From: a virus
Taxonomy: Duplodnaviria; Caudoviricetes
IMG/VR virus record: IMGVR_UViG_3300031606_000339
Span: 36,490-100,489 of that record
Length of the DNA stretch: 64,000 bases
Direction: 5' to 3' (one strand)
A model generated the notes under the pieces. That model searched no databases. It was not told the origin of the DNA and saw nothing but the letters and a program-made list of their open reading frames with translations. Position numbers and translations under genes: made by a program. Each line of letters starts with the position of its first letter. Within the stretch, counting starts at the first letter, position 1. Below, one piece after another: positions 6,128-22,482 of the stretch.

Positions 6128-6973
6128 ATGCGCTATATACTTGCTAGTGATTTTTTTATAGATGATTTTATTGGAGGTGCCGCTCTAAATGATGAAGAGA
6201 TATATAAAGTCTTCAAAAATAAGGGCGAAGATATAGAAAAAATCAAAACCTCAAACATCACCGAGGAGTTTCTAGAGAAAGAAAAGGACTCCTTCTTCAT
6301 AGTCTCAAACTTTTTTCACCTATCTACAGAAGCCAGAGAGAAGCTATCAAGCCTTAAGTATCTTATCTATGCTCACGACTACAAGTTCGTGAAGCACACA
6401 AACCCCGCTGCTTACGACGACTTCAAGGTGCCGGAAGTCGACATAATTAATAAAGACTTCCACGAAAAAGCGGTAGTCATTATGTGCCAGAGCTCCCTGC
6501 AGCAAAAGATATACAACCTGAACCTAGACGTGGAAGACTCTACCGTAAACGTCTCCGGTAACCTTTGGTCAGATGAAGACTTTGAGGTTCTAGAAGAGAT
6601 GGAAAAGGTAAAAGAAAAAAAGCAGATGTGCTCTGTAATAAAGTCTCACTACTGGCAGAAAGGGGTGCCGGAAGCTATAAAAATTTGCATAGAAAAACAA
6701 TTCAACTACGACCTGATACACGACGACGATTACCACCAATTCCTTCGTAAGCTTGGCTTGAACGCAGCGCTTATGTTCTACCCGTTAACCCCAGAAACCC
6801 TCTGTAGGGCTGTCGCAGAAGCTAGAATGATGAACGTAAAAGTAATCACCAGCAACATGGTCGGCGCGACACACGAAAAATGGTTCGACGATATTAAAGG
6901 GAAAGAACTGATAGACTACATGAAAGATCGCAGGGACTACGTTTACTCTAGGATCAAATTATCCTCAAGCTAA
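6128..6973 (+). CDS. GT-B fold glycosyltransferase (GT4-like)
   Basis: IGGA.LN, YAHDY, QKG, PETLCRAVAEARMMNVKVITS (E-x7-E-like motif). Confidence 0.65.
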   Translation: MRYILASDFFIDDFIGGAALNDEEIYKVFKNKGEDIEKIKTSNITEEFLEKEKDSFFIVSNFFHLSTEAREKLSSLKYLIYAHDYKFVKHTNPAAYDDFKVPEVDIINKDFHEKAVVIMCQSSLQQKIYNLNLDVEDSTVNVSGNLWSDEDFEVLEEMEKVKEKKQMCSVIKSHYWQKGVPEAIKICIEKQFNYDLIHDDDYHQFLRKLGLNAALMFYPLTPETLCRAVAEARMMNVKVITSNMVGATHEKWFDDIKGKELIDYMKDRRDYVYSRIKLSSS

Positions 6974-6976
6974 CAA

Positions 6977-7765
6977 ATGAAATACTCCATAGGCATAGTA
7001 ACATACAGCAAGCGCTTTCACGCATTCTTCGAGCCCTTAGTTGACTCAATTAAAGAGCTCAAGCCCGACATTGATATCGTCGTTGCTGTGAACGGCGACT
7101 GCAAGAAAGAGTTCGACGAGACCTACAGGCAAAAAATGTTGTCTTTCTGCGCTAGTCACAAAAGAATATTCCCGATGTTTTTCACAGACCACAGGTCTTT
7201 AGCGAAGATGTGGAATAACACTATCCTCAACTGTCCGACGGAGAATATCCTGTTATTAAATGATGACGTTTATCTAACTGAAGAGTTCTGGCCGATTCTT
7301 GAAGCCTCAATTGAGCGACAAGAAAAAATGCCATTGAAATCTTTTAAAATAAACTCAAGCTGGAGCCACGTTTTTCTGAACAGGGAAGAGGTTTACGAGA
7401 ATCACTGGTTTGACGAAAGACTGCTGGGCGTAGGGTCAGAAGACGGAGACTTTGAGTGGAGGATGCTAAAGAGCAGGGGGCTGGACCAGTTTCCGGACTA
7501 CCTGATAATGAAAGGGATCATAAACCGCACGAAACAAACGGCCGACTCCACGCTCGCGCAAAAAAAAGCCAGACTCATAAACCACAAATATTTCCACATC
7601 AACAGGGAAGTAATGCACGAAGTAAAATATAAACCAAGTCCTGAATCTCCACCAAGGGGCATACTAAAACTATCTAAGTACGGAACAAGGGTTGAGGAAA
7701 AGGATCCCTGCAAGCAACAGTACCCGTACGAAAAGTTTTACTGGGAAAATAAAAAAAACATATGA
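6977..7765 (+). CDS. GT2-like glycosyltransferase
   Basis: SIGIVTY, WN...ILLLNDD, WFDERLLGVGSEDGDF. Confidence 0.75.
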   Translation: MKYSIGIVTYSKRFHAFFEPLVDSIKELKPDIDIVVAVNGDCKKEFDETYRQKMLSFCASHKRIFPMFFTDHRSLAKMWNNTILNCPTENILLLNDDVYLTEEFWPILEASIERQEKMPLKSFKINSSWSHVFLNREEVYENHWFDERLLGVGSEDGDFEWRMLKSRGLDQFPDYLIMKGIINRTKQTADSTLAQKKARLINHKYFHINREVMHEVKYKPSPESPPRGILKLSKYGTRVEEKDPCKQQYPYEKFYWENKKNI

Positions 7766-8787
7766 AAAAAGAAGTACTGATTACTGGCGTAGCGGGACTG
7801 ATTGGAGCTAACTTTGCCGATTGGATCTTAAAGAACAGACCAGAGATCGGCGTCGTCGGGGTAGACGATCTAAGCGGAGGATACGAAAGCAACGTAGACG
7901 AAAGAGTTAAGTTTTATAAGCGTAACCTAATCCACGATTCAGTTTCAGATATCCTCGAGAAGCACAACATCGCTTACGTTTTTCATTTTGCAGCTTATGC
8001 GGCTGAGGGACTTAGCCCCTTCATGAGGAAATACAACTACCTTAACAACACGGTAGCTACAGCTAATATAATAAATAACTGTATAAACCACAAAGTAGAG
8101 AGACTAGTCTTCACCTCCACGATGGCTGTATATGGACACGCAGGAATGAGCTCCAGAGATGGCCAACTTACAACTTCCTTCTCGGAGCACCAGACCCCAG
8201 AGCCCATTGATCCATATGGCATAGCGAAATACGCATGCGAGATGGACATCAATGTCGCCGGCAAACAGCACGGATTAGACTATTGCATAATTAGACCCCA
8301 CAACGTCTACGGCAAAAAGCAAAACATCTGGGACAGGTACAGAAATGTTTTGGGAATTTGGATGTACCAACACCTACACGGACAACCATTCAGCATCTTC
8401 GGAGACGGAGAGCAGAAAAGAGCCTTCAGCTGTATAGATGATTCGTTGCATTGCCTATGGACCGCGGCGGTTTCCCCGGGGTGCTCAAAGGAAATCATTA
8501 ACCTAGGAGGAACAAAAGAATACACCATCAACCAAGCGTCGAAAATACTCATGAAAGTTATTGAGAGCGGAGACGTAAGGTACCATGAAAAAAGGCACGA
8601 AGTTAAAAACGCGTGGGCTTCTTTCGAGAAGTCAGTAAGGCTACTGAACTACAAGAACAATACCCCGCTCGAGAAGGGCTTAAGAGACATGTGGAAGTGG
8701 GCACAGGTTCAACCTGATAGACCAAGGCAGTCTTGGGACGAGTATGAAGTCGAAGAAAAAATATACGACTTCTGGAAGAATAAATAA
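7762..8787 (+). CDS. NAD-dependent nucleotide-sugar epimerase/dehydratase (GalE-like SDR)
   Basis: TGVAGLIG, DDLSGG, HFAA, TSTMAVYG, YGIAK (YxxxK), RPHNVYG. Confidence 0.92.
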   Translation: MKKEVLITGVAGLIGANFADWILKNRPEIGVVGVDDLSGGYESNVDERVKFYKRNLIHDSVSDILEKHNIAYVFHFAAYAAEGLSPFMRKYNYLNNTVATANIINNCINHKVERLVFTSTMAVYGHAGMSSRDGQLTTSFSEHQTPEPIDPYGIAKYACEMDINVAGKQHGLDYCIIRPHNVYGKKQNIWDRYRNVLGIWMYQHLHGQPFSIFGDGEQKRAFSCIDDSLHCLWTAAVSPGCSKEIINLGGTKEYTINQASKILMKVIESGDVRYHEKRHEVKNAWASFEKSVRLLNYKNNTPLEKGLRDMWKWAQVQPDRPRQSWDEYEVEEKIYDFWKNK

Positions 8788-8789
8788 AG

Positions 8790-9614
8790 ATGGGGTACAA
8801 ATACCTAAGCGGCAATGCGTTTAAGAATATTTGCAAGTATTCTAGCGGACATTATTCATCCGCCAGAGAACCCCACTTTGACTTTAAGGTTAGAAAGGAC
8901 CTAGAGAACAATTATGTCTTCATTAAGACTGAGTACATCGCTACTTTTTTTGAGTATATACATTTAGATTTTCCATTTAAAATAATTACACACAACTCCG
9001 ACGAGGCGATTGACCATAGATTTTTGAAATATCTAGACAACCCCTTGGTAGAAGAATGGTACGGACAAAACATAAGCGCCGACCACCCCAAGCTTCGATC
9101 CATACCCATAGGTCTAGCTAACCCTAAATGGGCTCACGGCAACGAAAGAACAATGGACCTAGCCATAGACGCGGAGCACTGGAAAAACAAAAAAAGATTT
9201 GTATATGTCAATTTCGATATAGGAACAAATCCACCCGAGAGGCAAAAATGCCTACAGGAAACCGGACTACAAATGGCAGGAAGGGAGAGCTTCCCGAGCT
9301 ACCTGAGAGACATGGGGGAAAGCTTCTTCGCTCTATCTCCAAACGGCAACGGCATAGACTGTCATAAGCACTGGGAGTGTTTCTACATGAGGACTATTCC
9401 AATCGTAACCCGTAGTTTAAACTTAAAATATTACAGAGACTATCCGTTCCTTATAATAGACGACTGGAAAGACTTCAAGGATCTAGAACTAACCCCAGAA
9501 CTATACAAAAAAATATGGAATAACTTCAATGTAGACCATATACTACTAGACAATTATCTATTAAAAATCGGATTACAAAATGAACAAGCAACTTTTTCTG
9601 GACTTTTTAGGTGA
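8790..9614 (+). CDS. Exostosin/GT47-like glycosyltransferase
   Basis: THNSD, SIPIGLAN, FALSPNGNGIDCHKHWECFYMRTIPIV. Confidence 0.7.
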   Translation: MGYKYLSGNAFKNICKYSSGHYSSAREPHFDFKVRKDLENNYVFIKTEYIATFFEYIHLDFPFKIITHNSDEAIDHRFLKYLDNPLVEEWYGQNISADHPKLRSIPIGLANPKWAHGNERTMDLAIDAEHWKNKKRFVYVNFDIGTNPPERQKCLQETGLQMAGRESFPSYLRDMGESFFALSPNGNGIDCHKHWECFYMRTIPIVTRSLNLKYYRDYPFLIIDDWKDFKDLELTPELYKKIWNNFNVDHILLDNYLLKIGLQNEQATFSGLFR

Positions 9615-10047
9615 CAAGCTCTTATGTAGAATAAAGCCCTCAAAAATAGAGGGAGTGGGGGTGTTTGCTATAAAGGATATCCCCAAGGAAACCAAGCTTT
9701 TCGAGGCTTACTTTTCTAGCGCTTATGAGGTATTTGTGCCGTGGGAAAGGTGGTACTCTTACCCAAAGGAAGAGATCGAGGACCTAGATGAAGGAGTCAA
9801 AAAATTAGTCTATGATTTTTGCGAGGAAACGGAAGGGAGCGTGGCTGTTTGCTCAAACATGCCTAGAGACATAGAAGGGGGCTGTATTTATTTATTAAAT
9901 CACTCAGAGGAACCAAACGTGAAGTTTTTATATCCAGAAGGAGCATACGTCACTGTTAAAAAAATTGAAAAAGGAGAGGAGCTATGCTTCAATTATAGTG
10001 AAGATTTTAAAAAAGCTAAAGAAGAAATAAGCGAATGGACAGAATGA
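9580..10047 (+). CDS. SET-domain protein (lysine methyltransferase family)
   Basis: SKIEGVGVFAIKDI, LNHSEEPNV, IEKGEELCFNY. Confidence 0.9.
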   Translation: MNKQLFLDFLGDKLLCRIKPSKIEGVGVFAIKDIPKETKLFEAYFSSAYEVFVPWERWYSYPKEEIEDLDEGVKKLVYDFCEETEGSVAVCSNMPRDIEGGCIYLLNHSEEPNVKFLYPEGAYVTVKKIEKGEELCFNYSEDFKKAKEEISEWTE

Positions 10048-10048
10048 T

Positions 10049-10717
10049 ATGGCTTACCTTAATACTCCAGTACCAGTAATAACCGCCTACGTTAGGGGAA
10101 ATTTCTTGAGGAACCAAGAAGACTCTTTTGAAAAGAAGTACCCAGCGTTAATATTTGGGGTATCAAGCATTCCGGGCTACGCGCCGCTGTTTCATTTCGT
10201 AAACGAAGACGGAGGTTTATGGTGGCGCATGCCGATACATGCCTTCTGTTGGAAAGAGGAATCAGAAGAGCAAGAGCTAGACGAGCTAGTGCTGTGGGAT
10301 AGCTATAGCTATCACGTAAGCGTAACTCAATTCCCTTGGCTTAAAAATAAAAAAATGTCATTCACCAGCAGAAGAAAAAATAAATACACCGGCAGGTACC
10401 TATTCACGCTTGACTGGGCAGAAGCAGACGAACAATATACGAACTCATCCATATCAGAAGACCCCGGACACCATAAGTGTGGGCACGTCATAGAGCTAGA
10501 CAACGGTAACTACGCAATACAGCCGAACAACAGAGTAATCGTTCACGAGCCCGCATTCTCAGTTAAGCAAGGAGAACAAATTCTAGACAGAAAGTTTAAT
10601 ACGCACATATGGACTGCAGAAGGCAGCGAGAAGTGGGTGACAGAAGACACAGACTCTAGCCACTCCTACGAGTTTAAGCCAAACAAGCCCAAAGGGATTG
10701 GACCAAAATCTAAATGA
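10049..10717 (+). CDS. Hypothetical phage protein
   Basis: 222-aa ORF coupled to both neighbours; motifs R.PIHAF, LWD, YLFTLDW, HKCGH, GNYAIQPNNR resemble a family I recall from marine phages; function unknown. Confidence 0.7.
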   Translation: MAYLNTPVPVITAYVRGNFLRNQEDSFEKKYPALIFGVSSIPGYAPLFHFVNEDGGLWWRMPIHAFCWKEESEEQELDELVLWDSYSYHVSVTQFPWLKNKKMSFTSRRKNKYTGRYLFTLDWAEADEQYTNSSISEDPGHHKCGHVIELDNGNYAIQPNNRVIVHEPAFSVKQGEQILDRKFNTHIWTAEGSEKWVTEDTDSSHSYEFKPNKPKGIGPKSK

Positions 10718-11517
10718 AATTTTTCTATTCTCATATCTTTGGAGATTTTGCAGATCATCACGACTTATACTATAGCCTGAGCTACGCAGAGATAGAGCAC
10801 GGAGAGGAGAATGAAGCTCTAGAGTCCGGATTCATACCCGTTTTTGATTCAATAGAGCTATCTAAATACTGGAGCGACCACAAGAACATATGGTTCCAAG
10901 GCAGGCAGACGAGGATTAATTTAGAGAAATTTCAATGGAGGAAGTCTGTTAGAAAAAAGTCTAAAAGCAAAAACAAGGTGACCTATTACAGTAAAAGAGT
11001 GCAAGATGTAACGAGCGCAGAAGAAGAGAGGATGGGAGAGATATGCAAAGCCTACATCAAACACAAGTTCAGCAGGGAGCTTTCGGAAAAGGACGAAGAA
11101 TATTTCTATGACTACGTATTTAAAAGAGCAAGTAATAGAGAGATAATTTTTTATCTAAGGAGTAACGAAATCGTAGCGTTTAGCTGCCACCACATTTACG
11201 ATAAAGCCAAGGTAATTAGCCAATTTTGCTGGGACTATGCTGAGCCGAGGCTGGGGCTAGGGATCTACTCCCTCCATGTTGAAATTGAAAACGCCAAAGA
11301 AAATAATAATTACGTATACATGGGTCTAAGCTACGGAGACTGCTCGCTCTACAAGAAAGATATATGCGGCTTTGAATTTTGGACGGGCAGAGAATGGACA
11401 GACGACACGGCTCTTTATGAAAAAATGGTGACCCAAGAGACAGGACTGAAGACGCTCAAGGATCTAGAAAGGCTTCAAGACGCTCACTTTGAAAACCTAG
11501 AAACGATAAAAAACTAA
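10714..11517 (+). CDS. Arginyl/leucyl-tRNA-protein transferase (ATE1/Bpt family)
   Basis: ALESGF, TRINLEKF.W.KS.RK, WDYAEPRLGLGIYSLHVEIE.AK...YVYMG.....SLYK (ATE C-domain pattern). Confidence 0.75.
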   Translation: MKFFYSHIFGDFADHHDLYYSLSYAEIEHGEENEALESGFIPVFDSIELSKYWSDHKNIWFQGRQTRINLEKFQWRKSVRKKSKSKNKVTYYSKRVQDVTSAEEERMGEICKAYIKHKFSRELSEKDEEYFYDYVFKRASNREIIFYLRSNEIVAFSCHHIYDKAKVISQFCWDYAEPRLGLGIYSLHVEIENAKENNNYVYMGLSYGDCSLYKKDICGFEFWTGREWTDDTALYEKMVTQETGLKTLKDLERLQDAHFENLETIKN

Positions 11518-12447
11518 ATGAGTAGCAAAATCAAACTGAAGTTCACGTGCTTTTGGTCAAGCCCAGAAGCCACCAACAAAAGGATGATCCACAACTGGGG
11601 AGTACCCCCAGAATGTTTTGAGCTTACCGCAGGCGACGACTTCGATTATCTAGTAACACTATGTCACGGAGAAGAGATGCTAACCACGGCAAAAGAAAAA
11701 AATATTTTAGTAGGAATGGAAGCAAGCTGGAGCCTCAACTCAAGGGGAAGCCTAGCGACCATGTGCAAATTAGTGGTTACCCCAGATGAAACCGTTAAGG
11801 GAAGCAACGTAGTACACAGACACCCATTCATGTTTAACGAAGACTCCAGAAATGACCAGCAGTCGCACTTTGTAAATGGACCGAGTCCCACGGAGTACTT
11901 AAGCAACATAGATTTTCACCCAAAAGTAGACAACAAATTCTACAAGAAGAAATTGTCTTTTTTTGTAGCGAATCATTACGCGCTAGCCGGAGCCCCGCAG
12001 CACCCAGACTCTAACTACCTCATAAAAGAAAAACTACTTAAAAAAATATTAGAGTCAGACCTGAACTGTGACATCTACGGCAGGGGATGGGACATACAGG
12101 ACTCTAGATACAAAGGAGCGCCAGCGCTAAAGGTGGACGGTCTAAGAGACTATAAATACAGCATAGCAATAGACAACGCTCGCGAAAAATACTATCTATC
12201 TGAGAAATTATTTGATTGCTTTTTAAACAACTGCGTTCCAATTTACTATGGTTGTAGCACGGCTCATGAAGCTTATGACTCTAGATCTTTTGCGATTTTT
12301 TTCCCAGAAAGAGAGGACGTCATAGGAGAACTAGAAAAGCATATTAGCTTTCCCGCAGAGCCGTACCACAAGTATGTATTAGAATCGAAAAGGAAATACT
12401 ACACAGAACATAATTTATTTATTTTTTTAATGGAAAAATTGACATGA
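11518..12447 (+). CDS. GT10 alpha-1,3/4-fucosyltransferase-like protein
   Basis: DIYGRGW, YKYSIAIDN...YYLSEKLFDCF...VPIYYG alpha-1,3-FucT motif. Confidence 0.8.
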   Translation: MSSKIKLKFTCFWSSPEATNKRMIHNWGVPPECFELTAGDDFDYLVTLCHGEEMLTTAKEKNILVGMEASWSLNSRGSLATMCKLVVTPDETVKGSNVVHRHPFMFNEDSRNDQQSHFVNGPSPTEYLSNIDFHPKVDNKFYKKKLSFFVANHYALAGAPQHPDSNYLIKEKLLKKILESDLNCDIYGRGWDIQDSRYKGAPALKVDGLRDYKYSIAIDNAREKYYLSEKLFDCFLNNCVPIYYGCSTAHEAYDSRSFAIFFPEREDVIGELEKHISFPAEPYHKYVLESKRKYYTEHNLFIFLMEKLT

Positions 12448-13118
12448 AATTAAACGTAGAAAAAGTTTTCGTCGCACACTATACGCCGCTTAAGCCAAGG
12501 AAGGAATTTTTAACTCAGTATTTTGAGCGCAACGGAATAGATATCGTTCAGTGGGTCGAGACCGAGACGTACCCCGATAATTTTTGGAGAACTAATGCGG
12601 AAAAATGGACAGAAAAAATAAGCTACGCATACCCGAAAGTGCACGACACAGCGAGAAGGCTATCCCCCCAAGAAAGATCAGTAGCACTTAAGCACTATAC
12701 TATTTTTCAAGAGATCTTAAAGGAAGACGGTGAGAACTTTTTAGTATTAGAAGACGACGTCTTTTTCGCTACAGAATTCGCAGAGCTATTTAACACGAAC
12801 CTAAAAGAGACCCCCAAAGACTGGGATACAATAATGATCGGAACCGGAGCAAACCTGCGCATACCGATCAAGGAGCAAGGCAAGGTCGCCCACCTAAAAG
12901 ACCACCCAGCCACAAAGTGCCTAGATTCTTACATAATTAAAAAGAGTGTCGTAAAAAAGATAATGGAGATGGAAGACCTTTTACCCATAGACTTGCCTAT
13001 TGACTTTGAGTTAGCCTATGTATTTAAAAAACTAGATATAAAAACCTACTGGTGGGAGCCGGGGATAACAATTCAAGGCAGCCAAAACGGCTTTTATAAA
13101 TCAGCAATTCCTCACTAA
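12444..13118 (+). CDS. GT25 glycosyltransferase
   Basis: SVALKH, LVLEDD, PKDWD, SYII, LPID. Confidence 0.8.
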   Translation: MKLNVEKVFVAHYTPLKPRKEFLTQYFERNGIDIVQWVETETYPDNFWRTNAEKWTEKISYAYPKVHDTARRLSPQERSVALKHYTIFQEILKEDGENFLVLEDDVFFATEFAELFNTNLKETPKDWDTIMIGTGANLRIPIKEQGKVAHLKDHPATKCLDSYIIKKSVVKKIMEMEDLLPIDLPIDFELAYVFKKLDIKTYWWEPGITIQGSQNGFYKSAIPH

Positions 13119-13119
13119 G

Positions 13120-14100
13120 ATGAAAGTAGCATTCCACACTAACGAAATTAACGTAAGGGGCACTGAGCTTGCAACCTACAGATACGCCCACTACAACGAG
13201 ACGATGCTAGACAACGAGTCTATATACATTGCTGGACCCACCACCTCAAGATTCGAGCACCCGCTCGCTGCTGAGAAGTTTGAAAAGCGCTTTAAAGTAT
13301 TTCGATATGACAAATGGGAAGAGGTCCAAGACATATTAGATCAAGAAAAGGTCGATGTTCTATACATGCAAAAAGGCGGAGAGTTTGACGGCAAGGTCTC
13401 AGAGAAGACGAAAACCTGCGTGCACGCAGTCTTTCAAAACCACGAGCCCCACGGAGATGTATATGCGTATATTTCCGAATGGCTTAGCCTAAAAGTCACC
13501 GAGGGAAAAGAAAAGTTTGTGCCCTACATAGTCGAAGTACCAGACGTCGAAACAGACCTAAGAGAGAAGTTGGAAATCCCAGAGAACGCAACCGTTTTTG
13601 GGAGGACAGGCGGACCAGACCAGTTCGATGTCCCCTTCGTTCATGAGGCTATCAAGAAAGTTTTAGACGAAAGAGAAGATGTCTATTTTATTTTTCTAAA
13701 CACCAACAACTTCCTAGAGCATGAACGTGTCAAATATCTGCCGGCAACAGCCGATGAGGTTTACAAAACCGAATTCATAAACACTTGCGACGCGATGATT
13801 CACGCGAGATTTATGGGCGAGTCTTTTGGAATGGCGATTGCAGAATTCTCTCTAAAAAATAAGCCCGTAATAACTGGGTGGGGAGGAAACGACCAAGCAC
13901 ACTTACATATGCTCAAAGAGAAAGGGATCTACTATAACAGCTATGAATCTATTCTAGAGATTTTAAGATCAATGAAGAAGGGAGACTTCGAAGACGGGGA
14001 CTGGAACGCCTATGATGGGTTCCGCGCGGAAATAGTTATGAAGCAATTCGAAAATGTTTTCCTTGATGGTTATAGAACCGCGTGGAGGATGTCGCACTAA
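13120..14100 (+). CDS. GT-B (GT4-like) glycosyltransferase
   Basis: RGTE, FGRTGG, FINTCDAMIHARFMGESFGMAIAEF...KPVIT. Confidence 0.8.
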   Translation: MKVAFHTNEINVRGTELATYRYAHYNETMLDNESIYIAGPTTSRFEHPLAAEKFEKRFKVFRYDKWEEVQDILDQEKVDVLYMQKGGEFDGKVSEKTKTCVHAVFQNHEPHGDVYAYISEWLSLKVTEGKEKFVPYIVEVPDVETDLREKLEIPENATVFGRTGGPDQFDVPFVHEAIKKVLDEREDVYFIFLNTNNFLEHERVKYLPATADEVYKTEFINTCDAMIHARFMGESFGMAIAEFSLKNKPVITGWGGNDQAHLHMLKEKGIYYNSYESILEILRSMKKGDFEDGDWNAYDGFRAEIVMKQFENVFLDGYRTAWRMSH

Positions 14101-14859: not shown

Positions 14860-14860
14860 C

Positions 14861-15520
14861 ATGGAAGACGGCGAAAAAATGGTATGGTGCTGCGGCAATT
14901 ACAGGAGCGGGTCTACCCTAATCTATAGAATAATCAAAAGCCTCCTCAAAGAGGCTGGATACAATTCAATTTACAGCACAATGAAAGTCCACCAAGATTG
15001 GATGGAAAAATTTAACGAAAGAGACCTCTCCGTATACAGCTATCGAGACATGAGGGACGTAATGGCTTCTTTTTTCTACAGAGATAAAGTAAACTTTGAA
15101 ACCTTTCGAGATCACACAGGCGCAGGGAGAAACGTTGTAGAATTTATCAAGTGGATGATAGACTATGACGACTTCATCAAGAGCTACGAGCGCGAGAATC
15201 CAAGCAAGGTAATCATATTTAAATATGAAGAAGACATCATAAACAAAAACTTTAATTTAGTAGAGTCCATACGTGATTTTTTATTAATCTTAGATGATAG
15301 ACACAGTCAGGGGATAGCAGAGAAGCTCTCGTTTGAGAACTCCAAGAGGATAAGCGACAGTCTAACTCAACACGATCAATCCACTCAGCTTCACCCAAAC
15401 CACCTGAAAGACGGGAAGCCAAACAAATACAAGGAAGCCTTCACAGAAGATCAGTTAAAAAAGATAAATCAAGACGATAAAATTTCCGACTGGCTGAAAA
15501 GAAACGGATACGAAATATGA
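14861..15520 (+). CDS. PAPS-dependent sulfotransferase
   Basis: YRSGST 5'-PSB loop, KVH, YRDMRDVMASF 3'-PB motif, FKYE. Confidence 0.85.
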   Translation: MEDGEKMVWCCGNYRSGSTLIYRIIKSLLKEAGYNSIYSTMKVHQDWMEKFNERDLSVYSYRDMRDVMASFFYRDKVNFETFRDHTGAGRNVVEFIKWMIDYDDFIKSYERENPSKVIIFKYEEDIINKNFNLVESIRDFLLILDDRHSQGIAEKLSFENSKRISDSLTQHDQSTQLHPNHLKDGKPNKYKEAFTEDQLKKINQDDKISDWLKRNGYEI

Positions 15521-16332
15521 AAAAGTTTTGCGTATTAGAGCAGGGCAAGTATGTTAACCACCGAATTACTGTGGAAAAAAGAGACCTGTATGACAGCAGC
15601 GTTTCTGGTTATTACCGTTTTAATTGGTACACAGACGAAGACCCGCTTGCGGACATAACCAAAAAGGATGCCGGAGAAAAGACCCTAAGGTGGGCGGAGG
15701 GAAGAAACTTTCTCTTCGAGAACGTAAATAAAGACTATGAATATTTTATATTTATGGACGAAGACGTTAAGGTAAAGACTTACCCAGAAAAAAAACATGA
15801 CAAAGAAAAAATTTTAAGCAGGATCTATGACTTTTTAGAGGAATGGAATCCAATTGCGGCAGTCGCGCACACAGTGAATGTATGGGGCTCAAACGGAGGA
15901 GAGGAGCTTTCGGAAGGAATGGTCAAAGAGGGAGAGCCTAAGTGCGTCAAAAAACACGACGCGTGCATGAGTGTGCTGAGAAAAAGCTTCGCCGAAAGAG
16001 TGTTCCCAATAAAGCACGACGGATCAGACCTGTGCTCAGCTTACCAGCAGTGGCTTGCGGCGACATATTACCCCAGCAAGTTCATGTTTATACCTGAGGT
16101 TTTCAGCATAAACGCAATAGAAGAACAACACCACCACGTAGATGACAGGGGCGACGAGTGGAGGTTAAGGGTTATCAATGGGTTTGCTGACGAACTGATA
16201 GACCCGAGTAAGTGGTTATCTAATTTCACGAAAGACGGGTACTGGAAAGACCAAGAGGTACTGAGCGGCCATGAGCCGAGCAAAGAAATTGTAGAGGCTA
16301 CGGATGAAAAATTTTCCCAGATTTTTAAATAG
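15517..16332 (+). CDS. Putative GT-A fold glycosyltransferase
   Basis: WAEGRN.L, YEYFIFMDED (DxD), HDAC. Confidence 0.55.
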   Translation: MKKFCVLEQGKYVNHRITVEKRDLYDSSVSGYYRFNWYTDEDPLADITKKDAGEKTLRWAEGRNFLFENVNKDYEYFIFMDEDVKVKTYPEKKHDKEKILSRIYDFLEEWNPIAAVAHTVNVWGSNGGEELSEGMVKEGEPKCVKKHDACMSVLRKSFAERVFPIKHDGSDLCSAYQQWLAATYYPSKFMFIPEVFSINAIEEQHHHVDDRGDEWRLRVINGFADELIDPSKWLSNFTKDGYWKDQEVLSGHEPSKEIVEATDEKFSQIFK

Positions 16333-17026
16333 GCAAACGACACACCCCAGTGATATGGACAACCTGAAAGACACAATCGAAACCCTTAAACAGACGACGG
16401 GCACGCCCAAGTGCACCGGGTGGATGTATGACGAGCAAGGGCTATTAATCTACTCATTAATAAAATATATTAAGCCAGAAATCGTCATACAAACGGGTCA
16501 CCTCTGGGGCAAGTCCGCGTGCTTTATACTGGAAGCGCTAAACGACGGGCTATTAAACACGCGCCACCTTGAAGAATCGCAAGAGTCTGACAAAAATTAC
16601 ACAGGCTTTGTTGACAGTCATAAACCAGACGCGCAAGAAGAAGCGAAGTTAATTAGCATAGATCCGTTTAGAAGCCCAGAGAGACATACGCCTCCTAGAT
16701 GGGAAAAAGGAATAGAATACTTAAAAGAAAAATATGGAAACAGTTTTGAATTTTACCACGAAACAAGCGATCAGTTTTTCGCGGACAACAGAGAGAAATA
16801 CGCAGGCAAGCATGTCCTAGCCGTGGTTGATGGAGACCATAGTCCCGAAGGCTTACTCAGGGACCTAGAAAACCTAGACGTGATGCAGTGCAAATATATT
16901 ATCGTTGATGATGTATTATTTCTACCTCACCTAGGGAAAGTGTGCAAAGATTTTGCGAGTCGAAAAAGCTTTGAATATGCCCCAATCAATCTGTATAACG
17001 GGTTCGGACTGCTAACCAAAATCTAA
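16304..17026 (+). CDS. Class I SAM-dependent methyltransferase (Methyltransf_24-like)
   Basis: KPEIVIQTG..WGKS, LISIDP, VDGDHS, IIVDD; alternative start at 16355. Confidence 0.8.
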   Translation: MKNFPRFLNRQTTHPSDMDNLKDTIETLKQTTGTPKCTGWMYDEQGLLIYSLIKYIKPEIVIQTGHLWGKSACFILEALNDGLLNTRHLEESQESDKNYTGFVDSHKPDAQEEAKLISIDPFRSPERHTPPRWEKGIEYLKEKYGNSFEFYHETSDQFFADNREKYAGKHVLAVVDGDHSPEGLLRDLENLDVMQCKYIIVDDVLFLPHLGKVCKDFASRKSFEYAPINLYNGFGLLTKI

Positions 17027-17028
17027 CC

Positions 17029-17057: not shown

Positions 17058-17065
17058 AAATAACT

Positions 17066-17737
17066 ATGGAAAAATATTCCTATAACACGAACAAGTATCC
17101 GTTCAGAAAGATTACCGAAGAATATCTAAAAATTTCTAATTTAGAAAATCTACACGGAGACCACGAGTTCGAGGGAGTTCTCACCTCATCAAAGGGAGAG
17201 CATTCCGACCAGAAACAAGAGCTCCATAGGAAATTCTACGACAGGATGGATCAGGATAACTTACTAAAAGAAAGATACGACCACTTCATTAAAGAGATCA
17301 TCGCTCCGATTTTTGACGAGGAGATATATTTTCAAAAATATCCCACCTTCAGGATTCACCAGCCAGACAACATAGCAGTCTTCGAGTTTCACAAGGATAA
17401 AACGTACAACCACCCCGAGGGAGAGGTAAACATATACCTGCCAATAACAAAAGCTTATGACTCAAACACAATATGGGTAGAGAGCGAAGAAGACAAAGGC
17501 GACCACTCCCCCATGAATGCTGACTACGGAGAAGTCTACGTTTGGGACGGCAACAACTTAGAGCACGGGAATAAGCTAAACGAAACCGGAGAGACTAGAC
17601 TTAGCTTTGACCTTAGGGTAATTACTAAGTCAAATTACAAAAATCGCAAAGAAAAAGGGAGCAGCGTCACAAGCGATACCAAATTTATTCTCGGAGAATA
17701 CTATGATAGAATACCAGCCTTCATGAAGCATAGATGA
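17066..17737 (+). CDS. 2OG-Fe(II) oxygenase-like protein (StrG-like)
   Basis: QKYPTFRIH, FHKD (HxD), EVN.YLP.T, HGN..N.TG.TR.S.D.R. Confidence 0.75.
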   Translation: MEKYSYNTNKYPFRKITEEYLKISNLENLHGDHEFEGVLTSSKGEHSDQKQELHRKFYDRMDQDNLLKERYDHFIKEIIAPIFDEEIYFQKYPTFRIHQPDNIAVFEFHKDKTYNHPEGEVNIYLPITKAYDSNTIWVESEEDKGDHSPMNADYGEVYVWDGNNLEHGNKLNETGETRLSFDLRVITKSNYKNRKEKGSSVTSDTKFILGEYYDRIPAFMKHR

Positions 17738-18711
17738 AAGCAAATATAATAGGGTGCGGGCTAGCCGGGGTGACCTCAGCGATAACCTTAAGAGAAAAAG
17801 GTTATGATGTAGAAATTTTTGAGTCCCGCAATCACATCGGCGGAAACTGTTACGACGAAAAAATTAACGGCGTCACCGTTCATAAATATGGACCGCACGG
17901 ATTCCACACAAACAACGATCAAGTCTGGGATTTTCTAAATAGATATACTAAATTCAATAAGGTTTGCCTGAGGGTAAAAGCGAACACCAAAGAGGGCATA
18001 ATACCCATACCGTTCAACAGGGAATCCGAAAAAATAATAGGAAAGAAGACTCCCGAAGAAATAATAGATCTGATTTTCAAAGACTATAGCGAAAAAATGT
18101 GGGGAGTTCCTTGGGAGAAGTTGCCGACAAGCATCACGTCCAGAGTGCCGAAGCTAAGAGACGATTTCAGTGCGTGTTTTCACACGGACAAGCACCAAGG
18201 CGTGCCGGAGAAAGGATACACTCATATGTTCCAAAACATGCTTAATGGAATTAAGGTAAACCTTGGCTGCGACACGAGCGAGTGGAGAAGGCGCGACTGC
18301 GACCTATTAATCTACACGGGCAAGATAGATGAGTATTTTAACTACTGCTACGGGTGGCTAGAGTATCGCTCGCTATTAATACAATTAGAAACCGCGCCCA
18401 AAAGGAAAGACATTTTTCAGCTAAACGAATGCAACAAAAAAGACTCGACAAGAAGCGTGGACCACTCTCACTGGCACGAACAAGACGTCGAAGAAACCGT
18501 GATATCGAGAGAGTACCCACAAGAACACGACGAATCAAACACTCCCTTTTACCCAAAGCCTTTCGGAGACAACGTCTCCAGATATAAAAAATACAAAGAG
18601 CTTGCCAATCGAGAAAAACATACGATTTTTATCGGAAGGTTAGCGACCTATAAATACCTAGACATGGATGACGTGATAGCACAAGCCCTAACTAAACTTA
18701 AAAAAACATGA
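17734..18711 (+). CDS. glf: UDP-galactopyranose mutase
   Basis: IIGCGLAG, HIGGNCYD, HKYGPH.FHT, YTGKIDEYF, LEYRSL, GRLATYKYLDMD. Confidence 0.95.
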   Translation: MKANIIGCGLAGVTSAITLREKGYDVEIFESRNHIGGNCYDEKINGVTVHKYGPHGFHTNNDQVWDFLNRYTKFNKVCLRVKANTKEGIIPIPFNRESEKIIGKKTPEEIIDLIFKDYSEKMWGVPWEKLPTSITSRVPKLRDDFSACFHTDKHQGVPEKGYTHMFQNMLNGIKVNLGCDTSEWRRRDCDLLIYTGKIDEYFNYCYGWLEYRSLLIQLETAPKRKDIFQLNECNKKDSTRSVDHSHWHEQDVEETVISREYPQEHDESNTPFYPKPFGDNVSRYKKYKELANREKHTIFIGRLATYKYLDMDDVIAQALTKLKKT

Positions 18712-19670
18712 CAAAAGATTCTACCATTTTTATCGCAGGAGCTAGGGGAATGGTTGGCTCAGCCATAGCAAGGGCTCTAAAAAAAGCTGGGCACAAAAAT
18801 CTACTCACACCCAACAGGGAAGAGCTTGACCTAACGAGACAGCTAGACGTCGAAGACTTTTTTAAATCTAACAACATAGAGACAGTAATAGACTGCGCGG
18901 CAAAGGTCGGAGGAATACATTCCAACAATCTGTACAGAGCAGACTTTATATACAGCAATCTACAGATACAAAATAATGTAATCCATTCCGCCTATCAACA
19001 TGGTGTAAAAAAATTGTTATTTTTAGGCAGTTCTTGCATATACCCTAAGTTTACTGATCAGCCAATTAAGGAGGAGTACCTGCTAAGAGCTCCCCTAGAA
19101 TATACAAATGAGCCCTACTCCATAGCAAAGATTGCAGGCATTAAGATGTGCGAGTCATACTTCAAACAATATGGTTGTAATTTTTTATCCCTTATGCCGT
19201 GCAATCAATATGGTCCGAACGACAATTTCCACCCTGAAAACTCCCATGTACTACCCGCGCTCTTAAGAAAGTTCCATGAGGCTTATGTATACAATTATAA
19301 AACCGTAAAGATATGGGGAACAGGCAGGGCGAAAAGAGAATTCCTACACGTAGACGACTTAGCCTCTGCTTGCCTAACGGTATTAGATAAAGTAGAAGCG
19401 GAAGAGATGTACGGAGAAGGAATATCCCATTTCAATGCGGGCTATGGAGAAGATATTTCTATAGCCGAACTAGCGGAGAGCATAAAAGAGACCACGAAAT
19501 ACAGCGGAGACATCGAATTTGAAATAGACAAGCCAGAAGGAACGCTTAGAAAAGTTATGGACATCTCTAGACTTAAAAAATATGGATGGGAGCCACAAAT
19601 CCCCCTAAAAGAAGGCTTATCTTCAACCTATGAGTGGTTTAAGAACGCTAAGGAGGTGAGAAGCGTATGA
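18708..19670 (+). CDS. fcl: GDP-L-fucose synthase
   Basis: AGARGMVGSA, AAKVGGI, FLGSSCIYPK, EPYSIAKIAG, YGPNDNF, SHVLPAL, REFLHVDD. Confidence 0.96.
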   Translation: MTKDSTIFIAGARGMVGSAIARALKKAGHKNLLTPNREELDLTRQLDVEDFFKSNNIETVIDCAAKVGGIHSNNLYRADFIYSNLQIQNNVIHSAYQHGVKKLLFLGSSCIYPKFTDQPIKEEYLLRAPLEYTNEPYSIAKIAGIKMCESYFKQYGCNFLSLMPCNQYGPNDNFHPENSHVLPALLRKFHEAYVYNYKTVKIWGTGRAKREFLHVDDLASACLTVLDKVEAEEMYGEGISHFNAGYGEDISIAELAESIKETTKYSGDIEFEIDKPEGTLRKVMDISRLKKYGWEPQIPLKEGLSSTYEWFKNAKEVRSV

Positions 19671-20758
19671 TAAATTCTAAAACCGTATTGGTAACAGGGG
19701 TGACAGGTCAAGACGGAGCAAACATGTGCGAGTTTCTTCTAAGAATGCCGGGGTACAAGGTCTACGGCATGGTCAGAAGGTCTTCAAATCCTAACTTTAG
19801 CAACTGCAAAGCCTTCATAAACCACAACAAGTTTCAGTTGGTGCACGGAGACCTAACAGACCCAACTAGCCTAGACAATTTAGTCAGAGAAATCCAACCT
19901 GACTTCTTTATTAATTTCGCCGCGAACTCTTTCGTCGGATGCTCTTGGAACATGCCGCATCAAGTCTTCAACACCAACGCCTTGGGAGTAATAAACTGCT
20001 TGGAGGCGATTAGAAAGTTTAAGCCGCAATGTAGATTTTATAGCGCAGGTAGCAGCGAAGAATTCGGAGACGTAGACTATTTCCCGCAAGACATGAAGCA
20101 CCCCATCAAACCCCGAAGCCCATATGGGGCAGCCAAAGCAGCAGCAAGGCACATAGTAAAAGTTTACAGAGAGTCCTATGGCATGTACGCCGTACACGGC
20201 ATACTGTTCAATCATGAAGGAACCAAAAGGGGAGAAGAGTTTGTAACGAGAAAAATAACGAAAGGAGTAGCAAGGATTTACTGGGCTATAAAAAACAAAA
20301 AAGATTTTGAATCTATTAAGCTAGGAAACCTAAACGCCAAAAGAGACTGGAGCGATTCAGAGGATTTCGTAGAGGGAATCTGGTTAATGATGAACCGAAA
20401 CAAGCCGAAAGATTTTTTGTTAGCCAGTGGAAAGACTCACACGATTGCAGACTTTGTTAATGCCGCGTTTATGTGCGCCAAGATAGAGGGAACGTGGCAA
20501 GAGCTCGGAGAAGGTGTGCTTGGAGAATACGTGCCCCTACCCAAATCCGCAAAACTTATCCACAAAGACAGCGGGAAACCGCTTGTCGAAATTGATGCCA
20601 AGTTTTTTAGACCAGCAGAAATTAATTTATTACTAGGCGACCCAACGGAGGCAGTCTCAGAGCTAGGCTGGAGACCTAAAATTTCGTTTGACAAATTAGT
20701 TAAAAAAATGGTAGCATGGGATATCAATGAAGGGGAAGAAAAAACAGGTTCAACCTAA
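19667..20758 (+). CDS. gmd: GDP-mannose 4,6-dehydratase
   Basis: TGVTGQDG, PRSPYGAAK, GILFNHE, FVTRKIT, LGNLNAKRDW, FRPAE. Confidence 0.96.
   Translation: MINSKTVLVTGVTGQDGANMCEFLLRMPGYKVYGMVRRSSNPNFSNCKAFINHNKFQLVHGDLTDPTSLDNLVREIQPDFFINFAANSFVGCSWNMPHQVFNTNALGVINCLEAIRKFKPQCRFYSAGSSEEFGDVDYFPQDMKHPIKPRSPYGAAKAAARHIVKVYRESYGMYAVHGILFNHEGTKRGEEFVTRKITKGVARIYWAIKNKKDFESIKLGNLNAKRDWSDSEDFVEGIWLMMNRNKPKDFLLASGKTHTIADFVNAAFMCAKIEGTWQELGEGVLGEYVPLPKSAKLIHKDSGKPLVEIDAKFFRPAEINLLLGDPTEAVSELGWRPKISFDKLVKKMVAWDINEGEEKTGST
20688..20717 (+). promoter_or_regulatory. Sigma70-type promoter inside the 3' end of gmd
   Basis: TTGACA-18-TAGCAT with extended TG; ATG 20727 is 9 nt downstream. Confidence 0.55.
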
Positions 20759-21170
20759 GAGATTGATTTTTGACAAAAAGGGCAAGCCGCCCGTAGTTAA
20801 AAACAAATATCAATTAATGGTTTGGCAACTTTTAAAAATACCCGACGATTTATCAAGAAACGAATGGATGAGGGAAGTAAAAATAGGGAAGGATTTATTC
20901 GAAGAGTATCCCGACGAAAAGTTTTGGAGTCAACTAGATTTAGGTTTTTATTTAAATTCTTTAGCCTTTTTTAAAAGAAAAGAGGGCTCAGAAACCTTAA
21001 GAGAAGCGAGGTCAAAATACGTTGGCTTCCTAAATATAGACGTCCAGCCAAAAGAGAAAATTAAATTAGAGAAGAATAAGATAGGAAACGACACTGTAAT
21101 ACAGAAAAGGGGGAAAAACTTTAAAGATGTATTTGACTTCTTAAAAAATTATGGCCAAAAAACAAAATGA
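20727..21170 (+). CDS. Hypothetical basic protein
   Basis: 147-aa Lys-rich ORF with its own putative promoter. Confidence 0.65.
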   Translation: MKGKKKQVQPKRLIFDKKGKPPVVKNKYQLMVWQLLKIPDDLSRNEWMREVKIGKDLFEEYPDEKFWSQLDLGFYLNSLAFFKRKEGSETLREARSKYVGFLNIDVQPKEKIKLEKNKIGNDTVIQKRGKNFKDVFDFLKNYGQKTK

Positions 21171-22482
21171 AGTGAAGGTCTGTCTTTGGACCCACGTACA
21201 AGATGAGTCTGCGATCATAGAGAAAATGCTCGAGAGTTGCGCGGATTATATCGACTATTGGGTGCTGGTTGATAACGGCTCCAAAGACAACACTAAGGAA
21301 CTTATCCAAAACCTCTTTGATAAAAAGGGTATTCCCGGGAAACTCTACGATAGCGAGATCGGCTGGAAAGGGCACGGCATTAATAGACAGCATTCGTGGG
21401 ACCTCCTGACTAAAACTGACCACGGGTGCGACTACATTTTAAGAGTAGATGCGGACGAGGGGATTCTCGTCGAAGACGACTTTGATTGGTCAATCATAAA
21501 GCAAAAAGAAGCTTGGCACATCACAATGAAGTCGGACAACCACTGCATAGCTAGAATGTGGATGTGGAAGTGGGGTCTCCCGTGGTTTTGGGCTGAAGAC
21601 GTTGCCCATGAAACCATACATCTAAAGAAGCACCTTGACGCGGGAAAAGAAGAGACAAGAAGCCCAGACGTAGGAATGATGCCGCAGGACTTTGTGCACA
21701 TACCTATGGGGGGAGGCAAAAGCTACGAAAACCCAATCAAATATATACAAGACGTTCTGAGGTTAGAAAATCAGATTTTTGAAAGACTACGCGACGGAAG
21801 CACGCTGGAAAAAGAAGCGTACCACCTTTATTATCTTTGTCAGTCTTTTAATTATGCGGGAATGGATTCAAATTCAGAATATCACTGTGACCTATTCCCG
21901 TATGGTCGCGAAAACGCCATAGAGTTTAACAAAAGGGGAATCTTTTACTGGACTAAGTACATGGAGAACTTCGGGGAAGACTGGTACGTCCTTAAAGAAA
22001 GGGGGTACCTTCACAAGTTCGCTGGAGACAAGCGGCTAGCGATTAAAGACTGGATTAAGTCTTACTCACTAAACCCCAAGAGATCCGAGTCCCTCTTCGA
22101 GGCTGTCCGGTCTCTTTTCGAAATCGGAGAGTATTCTATGGCAGCGAAGTTAGGGAAAAAATTATTAGACATCAAGTGCCCATACCCTGAAGACACTTAC
22201 TTCGTTGAGTATAATAAATACCACGATACCGGCTGGTGGGTTGGAGACTTGGTAGCGAGAAGCCTCCATAAGATAGGAATGGAAACCGAAGATAAGGCTC
22301 CAGTTAAAATGGCAGATAAGATAATTGAACAGCTTTTAAAAAGGAAGGAGATAGAAGAGGAGACGAGGGAAATGTTTTCTGATTACAGGGGGTTTTTTAA
22401 GTCTTTCCTATTAAACGCAAACAAGGTCAGCGTTATCGCTTCTGAGCCGGAAAGGGAAAAGAAGGGCTCGACCGGTGTCTGA
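21151..22482 (+). CDS. GT2 glycosyltransferase with C-terminal TPR-like helices
   Basis: VQDESAIIEKML, VDNGSKDNT, VDADE, VAHE; C-terminal YYL.QS, A...WIKSY..NPKRSESL TPR-like segments. Confidence 0.8.
   Translation: MAKKQNEVKVCLWTHVQDESAIIEKMLESCADYIDYWVLVDNGSKDNTKELIQNLFDKKGIPGKLYDSEIGWKGHGINRQHSWDLLTKTDHGCDYILRVDADEGILVEDDFDWSIIKQKEAWHITMKSDNHCIARMWMWKWGLPWFWAEDVAHETIHLKKHLDAGKEETRSPDVGMMPQDFVHIPMGGGKSYENPIKYIQDVLRLENQIFERLRDGSTLEKEAYHLYYLCQSFNYAGMDSNSEYHCDLFPYGRENAIEFNKRGIFYWTKYMENFGEDWYVLKERGYLHKFAGDKRLAIKDWIKSYSLNPKRSESLFEAVRSLFEIGEYSMAAKLGKKLLDIKCPYPEDTYFVEYNKYHDTGWWVGDLVARSLHKIGMETEDKAPVKMADKIIEQLLKRKEIEEETREMFSDYRGFFKSFLLNANKVSVIASEPEREKKGSTGV

Follow-up and report, generated by a model that had tools for sequence, protein, structure and literature searches.

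A putative virion-glycosylation operon and a giant collagen-like fibre gene in an uncultured marine phage

Described glycan clusters of phages and giant viruses

Islands rich in glycosyltransferases (GTs) are already known from large marine phages. Cyanomyophages and pelagimyophages such as S-SCSM2R, S-SCSM1 and P-SSM2 encode up to 13 of these enzymes, including members of families GT10, GT25, GT2 and GT1 (PMC12801897; PMC7029224); the set of 13 in the cyanomyovirus S-SCSM2R includes GT10 and GT25 (PMC12801897). The genes are accompanied by nucleoside diphosphate (NDP)-sugar epimerases, occupy hypervariable regions that often lie near tail-fibre genes, come with no reported flippase or polymerase, and have been read, without experiments, as modifying the host surface (O-chain) or DNA (PMC12801897; PMC7029224). 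Here we describe a 20-gene operon of predicted glycan-building genes at positions 6128-22482 of a 64,000-nucleotide stretch (the window), which comprises bases 36490-100489 of the single linear 100,489-bp IMG/VR virus record IMGVR_UViG_3300031606_000339. Coordinates are window positions unless marked "contig" (contig C1, the whole record); the record is about 63% complete by CheckV estimate. We favour, tentatively and at a little below an even chance, a role of the operon in glycosylating the virion or its fibres, chiefly a collagen-like fibre encoded in the same window.

The cyanomyophages and pelagimyophages are T4-like myoviruses, whereas this phage is probably siphovirus-like. Not described for them are a sulfotransferase with an adenosine 5'-phosphosulfate (APS) kinase, a UDP-galactopyranose mutase (glf), a prolyl 4-hydroxylase (P4H) homologue, or a giant collagen fibre with its own transferase. 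A fucose cluster partly homologous to the one described here is known from the cultured Synechococcus siphovirus S-SKS1 (Llyrvirus, HQ633071.1). Its co-directional sugar cluster at ~33.2-48.5 kb (SWZG_00036-00055) runs gmd, fcl, two unknowns, a GT25-like gene, a fucosyltransferase, further genes, a GT4-like gene and an epimerase. Identity to the proteins of our record is 52% for fcl, 47% over 318 aa for the GT4-like protein (SWZG_00038), 42% for gmd and 28% for GT25 (SWZG_00051). S-SKS1 has no collagen domain in its whole 208 kb and lacks the replication and tail genes of the lineage studied here, and its sugar locus, to which the comparison was confined, contains nothing homologous to glf, to the sulfotransferase or to the CmcI-type methyltransferase. 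Most genes of the cluster are annotated "hypothetical", and the cultured phage could serve as an experimental model.

Collagen-like exosporium filaments of Bacillus (BclA) and Clostridioides (SgtA-BclA3) are made in the cytoplasm and O-glycosylated by soluble transferases encoded nearby. Their acceptors are Thr residues in GXT repeats, whereas the phage fibre is built of Gly-X-Gln with few Thr. Soluble GTs encoded beside the structural genes of mycobacteriophages reportedly glycosylate virion proteins in the cytoplasm (Freeman et al. 2023, Cell Host Microbe, as cited in PMC12619734 and PMC12801897). Their transferases number one to a few and target the C-termini of capsid and tail-tube proteins; sugar-nucleotide pathways, sulfation and a collagen fibre are lacking. 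In the Megavirinae, virion fibrils are decorated in the cytoplasm by the products of clade-specific clusters of 6-33 genes (PMC9614988, PMC9546862), which combine NDP-sugar pathways, GTs, methyltransferases and sulfate adenylyltransferase (SAT)/APS kinase (PMC9614988). Our phage resembles them in pairing an APS kinase with a sulfotransferase, as some of these clusters do (PMC9614988). In the L230/R699 modification of Mimivirus collagen, L230 joins a 2-oxoglutarate (2OG) oxygenase to a GLT25D1-like transferase and acts on a proline-poor viral collagen (PMC9614988, PMC9546862). The Megavirinae are giant viruses of eukaryotes, with no sequence relationship between their genes and those of this phage; the Mimivirus enzyme hydroxylates lysines, which lie in the Y position of the repeat, whereas that of the phage is P4H-like and Lys lies mostly in X.

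What is new is that glf, a sulfotransferase plus APS kinase, a P4H homologue, a pair of GT25 genes and an operon for a giant collagen fibre, ending in a transferase, occur together. GT genes are frequent and numerous in large marine phages, and the usual guess at their target is host lipopolysaccharide (LPS); a 20-gene operon, a sulfation pair, a collagen-type hydroxylase and a giant fibre with its own transferase make this an unusually testable case. Should the fibre prove to be the acceptor, glycan coats of a virus's own making, complex and even sulfated, would extend from giant viruses to phages, with a bearing on adsorption, on the stickiness of particles in marine organic matter and on how grazers or hosts recognise them. 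Should the target instead be the host surface, the operon would act as a seroconversion system that does without membrane proteins, likewise a novelty.

The operon, its sulfation genes and its lineage

The operon comprises 20 co-directional open reading frames (ORFs) with no gap longer than 39 nt and with overlaps at 12 of the 19 junctions (Table 1). A strong terminator at 5459-5483 lies directly upstream of its promoter-like site. Translation of the first gene most likely begins at ATG 6128 (alternative 6125), the start also chosen in an earlier sequence-only reading of this stretch. That reading counted about nine GTs; three (GT10, GT25 and GT2) are firm and five more are probable, which makes eight. 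Its calls of gmd, fcl, glf, an epimerase, a sulfotransferase and a methyltransferase were all borne out by Pfam and NCBIfam, and three genes that its summary passed over (SET, ATE-like and phrog_3704) are not glycan genes.

Table 1. Features of the operon, the fibre operon and related glycan genes. Contig positions refer to the whole record. Abbreviations: AF2, AlphaFold2; PAPS, 3'-phosphoadenosine 5'-phosphosulfate; SAM, S-adenosylmethionine; SDR, short-chain dehydrogenase/reductase.
Feature	Position	Strand	Evidence or remark
Promoter-like site ahead of the operon	6092..6120	+	TTGACT-17-TAGCAT with TG extension
First operon gene	6128..6973	+	no Pfam, PHROG or PDB match; single-sequence AF2 pLDDT 34
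GT-A (GT2-like) glycosyltransferase, probable	6977..7765	+	Pfam GT2 17 bits, below cut-off
NAD-dependent sugar epimerase/dehydratase (SDR)	7762..8787	+	Pfam Epimerase 3.9e-38
GT47/RXYLT1-like glycosyltransferase, possible, weak	8790..9614	+	Pfam 16.5-16.7 bits, below cut-off
SET-domain protein (lysine methyltransferase fold)	9580..10047	+	Pfam SET 2.1e-11
Conserved phage protein phrog_3704	10049..10717	+	PHROG 4.7e-51
ATE/Bpt-like aminoacyl-tRNA-protein transferase homologue	10714..11517	+	Pfam ATE_C 3.7e-7
GT10 fucosyltransferase homologue	11518..12447	+	Pfam Glyco_transf_10 28.8 bits, over cut-off
GT25 glycosyltransferase	12444..13118	+	Pfam 42.2 bits, over cut-off
GT-B (GT4-like) glycosyltransferase, probable	13120..14100	+	Pfam GT1 16.8 bits, below cut-off
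GT-A-like (DUF5672-like), probable	14104..14859	+	no Pfam match; ESM Atlas structure match TM 0.82
PAPS-dependent sulfotransferase, minimal, 219 aa	14861..15520	+	Pfam Sulfotransfer_1 31.8 bits, over cut-off
GT-A-like (DUF5672/DUF707-like), probable	15517..16332	+	no Pfam match; Atlas feature scores 0.97-0.99, viral clusters
SAM methyltransferase, CmcI/TylF type	16304..17026	+	Pfam Methyltransf_24 2.3e-7, RMNT_CmcI 9.4e-5
ORF without matches	17066..17737	+	Pfam, PDB sequence and PHROG searches negative
UDP-galactopyranose mutase (glf)	17734..18711	+	GLF 1.1e-51, NAD_binding_8 1.5e-20
GDP-L-fucose synthase (fcl)	18708..19670	+	NF047922 443.8 bits, full length, just under equivalog cut-off
GDP-mannose 4,6-dehydratase (gmd)	19667..20758	+	Pfam GDP_Man_Dehyd 1.1e-108; TIGR01472 346.5 bits
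147-aa protein	20727..21170	+	kept beside gmd in relatives
GT2 glycosyltransferase with 300-aa C-terminal extension	21151..22482	+	Pfam GT2 28.0 bits, over cut-off
GT2-methyltransferase fusion	498..1799	+	Pfam GT2 35 bits and Methyltransf_23
628-aa GT1-domain protein and 386-aa partner	36164..39216	+	Pfam GT1 32 bits (36164-38050)
Soluble GT2, last gene of the fibre operon	40475..41251	-	Pfam GT2 54.3 bits; starts 3 nt past the collagen stop
Gly-X-Gln collagen-like tail fibre, 3,274 aa, candidate acceptor	41255..51079	-	translation; 63 Pfam Collagen matches
Tail-tip module (554, 873, 638, 582 and 590 aa and C-terminal tape-measure-like part)	51081..63999	-	same order in 40-90 related loci
APS kinase homologue	contig 17351-17809 (18.7-19.1 kb upstream of window)	-	PF01583 35.5 bits, P-loop and DGD motifs
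Eukaryotic-type phosphomannomutase	contig 21379-22179		PF03332 7.9e-31
2OG-Fe(II) oxygenase, P4H homologue	contig 32479-33162		closest solved: collagen prolyl 4-hydroxylases, 2.6e-15

Several assignments can be qualified further. The adjacent gmd and fcl genes overlap by 4 nt, and the TIGR01472 match of gmd is full length and, like that of fcl, just under its equivalog cut-off. The glf product scores 280.7 bits against TIGR00031, where the cut-off is 303.75, and is ~40 aa shorter than the model. Two operon genes match Pfam Epimerase over cut-off. The top NCBIfam match of the epimerase, GalE, and the arginyltransferase match of the ATE-like protein are both below cut-off. The GT at 6977-7765 matches a PHROG galactosyl transferase at 7.5e-4 and the GT2 hidden Markov model (HMM) at 18 bits; the Atlas match of 14104-14859 is a viral DUF5672 and GT2 cluster. 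The methyltransferase is likely a sugar O-methyltransferase. PDB sequence searches with five ORFs lacking an assignment returned chance-level matches only.

A full HMMER pass over 1.8 billion representative proteins recovered 275 relatives of the sulfotransferase. The family keeps the YRSGST (PAPS 5'-phosphosulfate) and RDxRDxxxS (3'-phosphate) motifs, and the AF2 model, with a pLDDT of 96, matches SULT structures at a Foldseek probability of 1.00. In a profile search of the PDB the closest entries are cytosolic phenol, alcohol and steroid sulfotransferases (3.6e-16), protein-tyrosine sulfotransferases (TPST) match at ~1e-4, and no carbohydrate sulfotransferase is among the top 60. The sulfotransferase call of the sequence-only reading is upheld by motifs and fold, and a glycan may be the acceptor, although the closest solved relatives do not act on carbohydrates. 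Our literature search for phage sulfotransferases linked with GTs and tail fibres found no paper.

Genomic context nevertheless points to sugars. A wide alignment of the relatives was too diverse for a search of sulfotransferase loci, and a narrower one led to three loci. On the viral contig L129 (IMGVR_UViG_3300030333_007144), a cassette of overlapping genes at 68-4802 encodes, in order, a DUF5672-like protein, an epimerase, an SDR, a sulfotransferase, a 205-aa ORF and a DUF5672/707-like protein. Four of these genes are homologous to the window genes 7762-8787 and 14104-16332, with identities of 60% for the epimerase and 35% for both 14104-14859 and 15517-16332. We link the sulfotransferase to sugar chemistry because the trio of DUF5672-like, sulfotransferase and DUF5672/707-like genes recurs on L129 together with the epimerase, and to real sulfation because the same record encodes an APS kinase. 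Both the sulfotransferase and the APS kinase were found in this record only, among five records of the lineage. A Thr/Ser/Gln-rich ORF stands at the end of the L129 contig.

The similarity of the sulfotransferase to enzymes acting on small phenols and alcohols would also suit a small glycoconjugate, soluble or secreted, that the phage makes during infection, for instance a sulfated glycoside or a natural product, and a four-enzyme amine pathway is encoded nearby at 22609-26173. Scaffold-forming enzymes (polyketide synthases, nonribosomal peptide synthetases, terpene synthases) are absent, however, and the recurrence of the sulfotransferase in a cassette with GT-A-like genes and an epimerase speaks against such a product, which we regard as very unlikely.

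The phage glycan kit is larger than the operon, with about a dozen scattered genes besides it. The 36 kb upstream of the window encode a second GT25, an FkbM protein, a Methyltransf_24 protein, class-I SAM methyltransferases, a pfkB sugar kinase, an NDP-sugar dehydrogenase, a GT1-like 360-aa protein and a weak Anp1-like protein (phrog_1574), in addition to the contig genes of Table 1. Within the window, the 628-aa GT and its 386-aa partner, which has no Pfam match, occupy the same place between DnaE and the tail module in all four relatives (G001-G004), at 23-54% identity; a comparison covering G001-G004 and 16 loci gave 40-54% identity and a shared gene order. To judge from this conservation they are a lineage-core glycosyltransferase pair. 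A GDP-mannose pyrophosphorylase (ManC-type nucleotidyltransferase) was not found in the ~63% of the genome covered. The description of the operon as self-contained was thus too strong: as far as the covered part of the genome indicates, the phage relies on its host for GDP-mannose, UDP-glucose/UDP-galactose, APS and SAM.

On these grounds the operon may be the core of a larger phage-encoded kit working in the host cytoplasm. By homology, gmd and fcl produce GDP-L-fucose and glf UDP-galactofuranose; the epimerase, the phosphomannomutase and the NDP-sugar dehydrogenase feed further sugars, and the APS kinase supplies PAPS. About eight soluble GTs of the operon and at least six encoded elsewhere could build a hetero-oligosaccharide, which the minimal sulfotransferase and several SAM methyltransferases would then sulfate and methylate. 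The acceptor would be the phage's own virion, chiefly the 3,274-aa fibre, which would fold in the cytoplasm and whose operon ends in its own GT2. The P4H-like oxygenase and the GT25 enzymes could hydroxylate residues and then attach sugars to them, as happens in animal and Mimivirus collagen. The fibre would end up with a variable, strain-specific, anionic glycan affecting adsorption, stability or recognition.

By its gene content, the record belongs to an uncultured marine phage. The island is flanked by phage genes for a class I ribonucleotide reductase, RecA, DnaB, primase, a PD-(D/E)XK nuclease and a split DnaE. A bacterial chromosome island, which the sequence-only reading had named as the finding that would overturn it, was rejected: this is an IMG/VR virus record with a phage replication module and a tail-tip operon common to IMG/VR phages. 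The eukaryote-flavoured domains (SET, ATE, GT10, GT47, Anp1 and the eukaryotic-type phosphomannomutase) prompted the consideration of a giant eukaryotic virus, which was ruled out by the genes for DnaB, DnaG, DnaE and RecA, by operon genes that overlap one another, and by the order of the tape-measure and tail genes.

Neither the 873-aa tail protein nor DnaB, each used alone as a query against IMG/VR, gave a match, and the 873-aa protein has just nine homologues among 5.8 billion clusters. Relatives were recovered via an alignment of these homologues, which yielded 22 IMG/VR loci and 71 metagenome loci, many of them from ocean surveys (e.g. Tara); no cultured relative of the lineage was found. 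Four larger relatives were fetched whole (G001, G002, G003 and G004, this record being G000), among them G001 (203 kb, 91% complete) and G004 (179 kb with terminal repeats, 100% complete). The gene order common to G001-G004 is GT1-like 360 aa, 117 aa, variable region, gmd, 147 aa, RecA, DnaB, primase, nuclease, PHP, exonuclease, DnaE, 203 aa, 628-aa GT, 386 aa, 230 aa and then the tail module. Because no tail sheath family was found in the search, the lineage is probably siphovirus-like. No tRNAs that could give a clue to the host were found in the record, and scans of genome contigs with gmd and TnpB for host clues found nothing. Nothing supports the earlier speculation that the glycan mimics fucoidan and baits polysaccharide-degrading hosts.

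Compared with these relatives, the island is accessory. The stretches 6128-18711 and 21151-22482 have no homologue in G001-G004, which share only gmd and the 147-aa gene; gmd is 57-58% identical to the G001 and G003 homologues, and its position beside recA is kept in the lineage. At the same position the relatives hold smaller regions of different gene content, with the flanking gene order kept, and GT2 matches number four in this record against none or one in each relative. The pattern is as expected for a surface structure under diversifying selection.

A collagen-like fibre as candidate acceptor

The window ends in a single minus-strand operon (63999 to 40475) that encodes a tape-measure-like protein, proteins of 590, 582, 638, 873 and 554 aa, the collagen-like protein and a GT2, with gaps of 4, 1 and 3 nt at the last three junctions. 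The 554-aa protein has PHROG structural matches. The tape-measure-like protein is rich in Gly and Met and is cut by the contig end; in relatives, ORFs of 2,279-3,187 aa precede the 590-aa homologue. Antisense to its gene, a plus-strand ORF at 63813-63971 with SCYRL/SCYRP repeats is probably a repeat artefact. A GT41 match in the 873-aa tail protein (E 0.006) was taken as chance.

The fibre protein consists of a 173-aa N-terminal domain, a Gly-X-Y region from residue 174 to 3148 with two globular inserts, and a 126-aa C-terminal domain. There are 856 Gly-X-Y triplets in runs of at least three, with Gln in the Y position of 699; the X position is occupied mainly by Tyr (137), Lys (133), Val (123) and Asn (76). 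At ~0.29 nm per residue the fibre would be ~0.85 micrometres long. The translation has no obvious signal peptide at its N-terminus, and any modification of the fibre would therefore be cytoplasmic. In 14 related loci the gene after the 554-aa homologue is likewise a collagen-like ORF, in most cases cut by a contig end inside the repeats. The dominant Y residue in these ORFs is Gln, Lys or Thr, with Lys commonest in six loci. Among the collagen-bearing loci are L025, L029, L030, L033, L038, L046-L050, L053 and L059. Across these loci the collagen fibre is thus a lineage trait with variable repeat chemistry.

The GT2 encoded directly after the fibre has no predicted transmembrane (TM) segment. 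Its closest solved relative is the Listeria flagellin glycosyltransferase GmaR (1.8e-5), followed by polyprenyl-phosphate transferases; the likeness to GmaR, a cytoplasmic flagellin O-glycosyltransferase, is a weak lead. For the GT25 at 12444-13118, one of two genes in the record that score over the Pfam cut-off for GT25, a family that includes the collagen galactosyltransferases, the closest solved structures are human COLGALT1 (1.3e-5) and Mimivirus R655. The closest solved relatives of the P4H homologue are enzymes from Bacillus anthracis, human, PBCV-1 and Chlamydomonas, and no lysyl hydroxylase is among its matches.

Among 17 related and comparison viral records, a P4H-type oxygenase is found only in the record with the giant collagen, which also accounts for two of the five GT25 genes seen and whose collagen far exceeds the others in size. 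With so few positives, this co-occurrence is only suggestive. A full collagen-type pathway may be proposed, with P4H-like hydroxylation, priming by GT25 or the fibre GT2, extension with fucose and galactofuranose, sulfation and O-methylation. We consider the complete series unlikely; if true, it would yield a proteoglycan-like, sulfated virion appendage, new for any bacteriophage.

Further observations support glycosylation of the virion. In the late structural operon a GT2 gene directly follows the collagen gene, although the 16-kb island itself is not adjacent to it. The SET and ATE-like genes place protein-modifying folds inside the operon. The 628-aa GT and its partner are kept next to the tail module. 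Finally, the virus encodes transferases and sugar-nucleotide enzymes with no export machinery.

Export machinery and competing targets

A six-frame hydropathy scan of the 100-kb record found no real multi-pass membrane protein with more than four hydrophobic segments; the many matches at contig 78-87 kb come from frames antisense to the collagen gene and are artefacts. HMM searches of G000-G004 for Polysacc_synt/Wzx (PF01943), Bac_transf, Wzy_C (PF04932), Glycos_transf_4 and ABC2_membrane (PF01061) gave nothing over cut-off, and positive-control genomes included in these searches for exporters and initiating enzymes did score. The earlier statement that the window has no multi-pass membrane gene is upheld by both approaches, and the look for exporters in the rest of the genome that it called for extends the absence to the 100-kb record and the four relatives, two of which, G004 and G001, are 100% and 91% complete, and so beyond this fragment. 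Nor does a Gtr seroconversion set appear: the only GtrB-like match at 40475-41251 (PHROG 2.6e-5) lacks TM segments, and there are no membrane partners in the record.

This absence does not compel the conclusion once drawn from it, that the acceptor is cytoplasmic. The transferases that build O-antigen and capsule are likewise soluble or peripheral, and enzymes of this kind could work with carriers and exporters supplied by the host. The operon may accordingly be imagined to remodel the host surface, its soluble transferases modifying a lipid-linked O-antigen, core or capsule that a host flippase or ABC exporter then exports, for instance to bar superinfection or to keep progeny phages from binding to debris. 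We hold this to be a serious competitor, if on balance an improbable one. It is the published reading of GT-rich hypervariable regions, GT10 and GT25 included, in pelagimyophages and cyanomyophages (PMC7029224, PMC12801897). The lack of a phage initiating enzyme in the HMM searches suits a host-primed carrier, the island is transcribed together with replication genes of early or middle type, and the homologous cluster of S-SKS1 exists without a collagen fibre. Both GT10 and GT25 include bacterial enzymes that act on LPS or lipo-oligosaccharide (LOS). On the other hand, the phage seroconversion systems that have been shown experimentally (Gtr, Oac and Wzy-beta) include integral membrane proteins, and none of this kind was found here. 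A chain made by at least eight foreign transferases would also have to suit the host Wzx, Wzy or ligase, and remodelling of the host surface leaves the fibre-operon GT2, the P4H homologue and the SET and ATE-like genes unexplained.

Glycosylation of the virion and its fibre remains our preferred explanation, and several points weigh against it. The main island is located with the replication genes, outside the structural operon. S-SKS1 has its fucose cluster without a collagen domain; fucose chemistry therefore needs no collagen fibre. Residues that usually serve as acceptors are scarce in the fibre, with Lys at 133 X positions against 15 Y positions and with Pro, Thr and Ser rare. COLGALT1 and R655 were the sole GT25-family entries that the PDB search returned, so that this similarity does not discriminate collagen-modifying from lipo-oligosaccharide GT25 enzymes. 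Soluble transferases and missing exporters would fit host undecaprenyl-linked acceptors equally well, about 37% of the genome lies outside the record, and for this lineage a virion glycan is deduced from genes alone. Of the giant-virus-like glycan coat proposed in the sequence-only reading, the gene content, the fibre-coupled GT2 and the precedents speak in favour, whereas the position of the island and the S-SKS1 cluster do not.

The separate transcription units of the island and the fibre GT2 allow a division of labour, in which only the fibre-operon GT2 acts on collagen and the island acts on capsid, decoration, tail-tube or host proteins. The fucose genes of S-SKS1 without collagen would fit such targets, and the capsid genes fall in the part of the genome outside the record. 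No candidate Ser/Thr-rich acceptor was seen in the 100 kb, however, and the mechanism would otherwise be of the same class as glycosylation of the fibre. We rate this variant as quite unlikely.

Least probable of all, to the point of being scarcely credible, is DNA hypermodification, in which the transferases would decorate modified bases against restriction. Phage GTs can build glycans on DNA, according to work cited in PMC12619734. The record does encode a dUTPase, a dCMP deaminase and a weak dNMP kinase match, but no hydroxymethylase or thymidylate-synthase-like gene is among the annotated contig genes, and the link to the collagen operon would go unexplained. We know of no case in which fucose, galactofuranose, sulfation and O-methylation, with at least eight transferases, are used on DNA, which also counts against this possibility.

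A few membrane-associated and secretory genes were noted in addition. The only protein in this record with three or four hydrophobic segments is a 159-aa MotA/TolQ/ExbB-like membrane protein (contig 16853-17332, 26.3 bits), whose gene adjoins that of the APS kinase. Among the relatives, G001 and G002 encode two unassigned proteins of ~280-295 aa with up to six hydrophobic segments and no Pfam match, and G004 encodes a voltage-gated-type ion channel (Ion_trans 1.5e-27; L110:3474-4190) beside a peptidoglycan-binding protein and sugar-nucleotide genes. Upstream of the window, a signal peptidase I (Peptidase_S26, 1.2e-17; contig 23819-24355) is encoded 1.4 kb from a trypsin-like peptidase (contig 25756-26703) that has an N-terminal hydrophobic segment.

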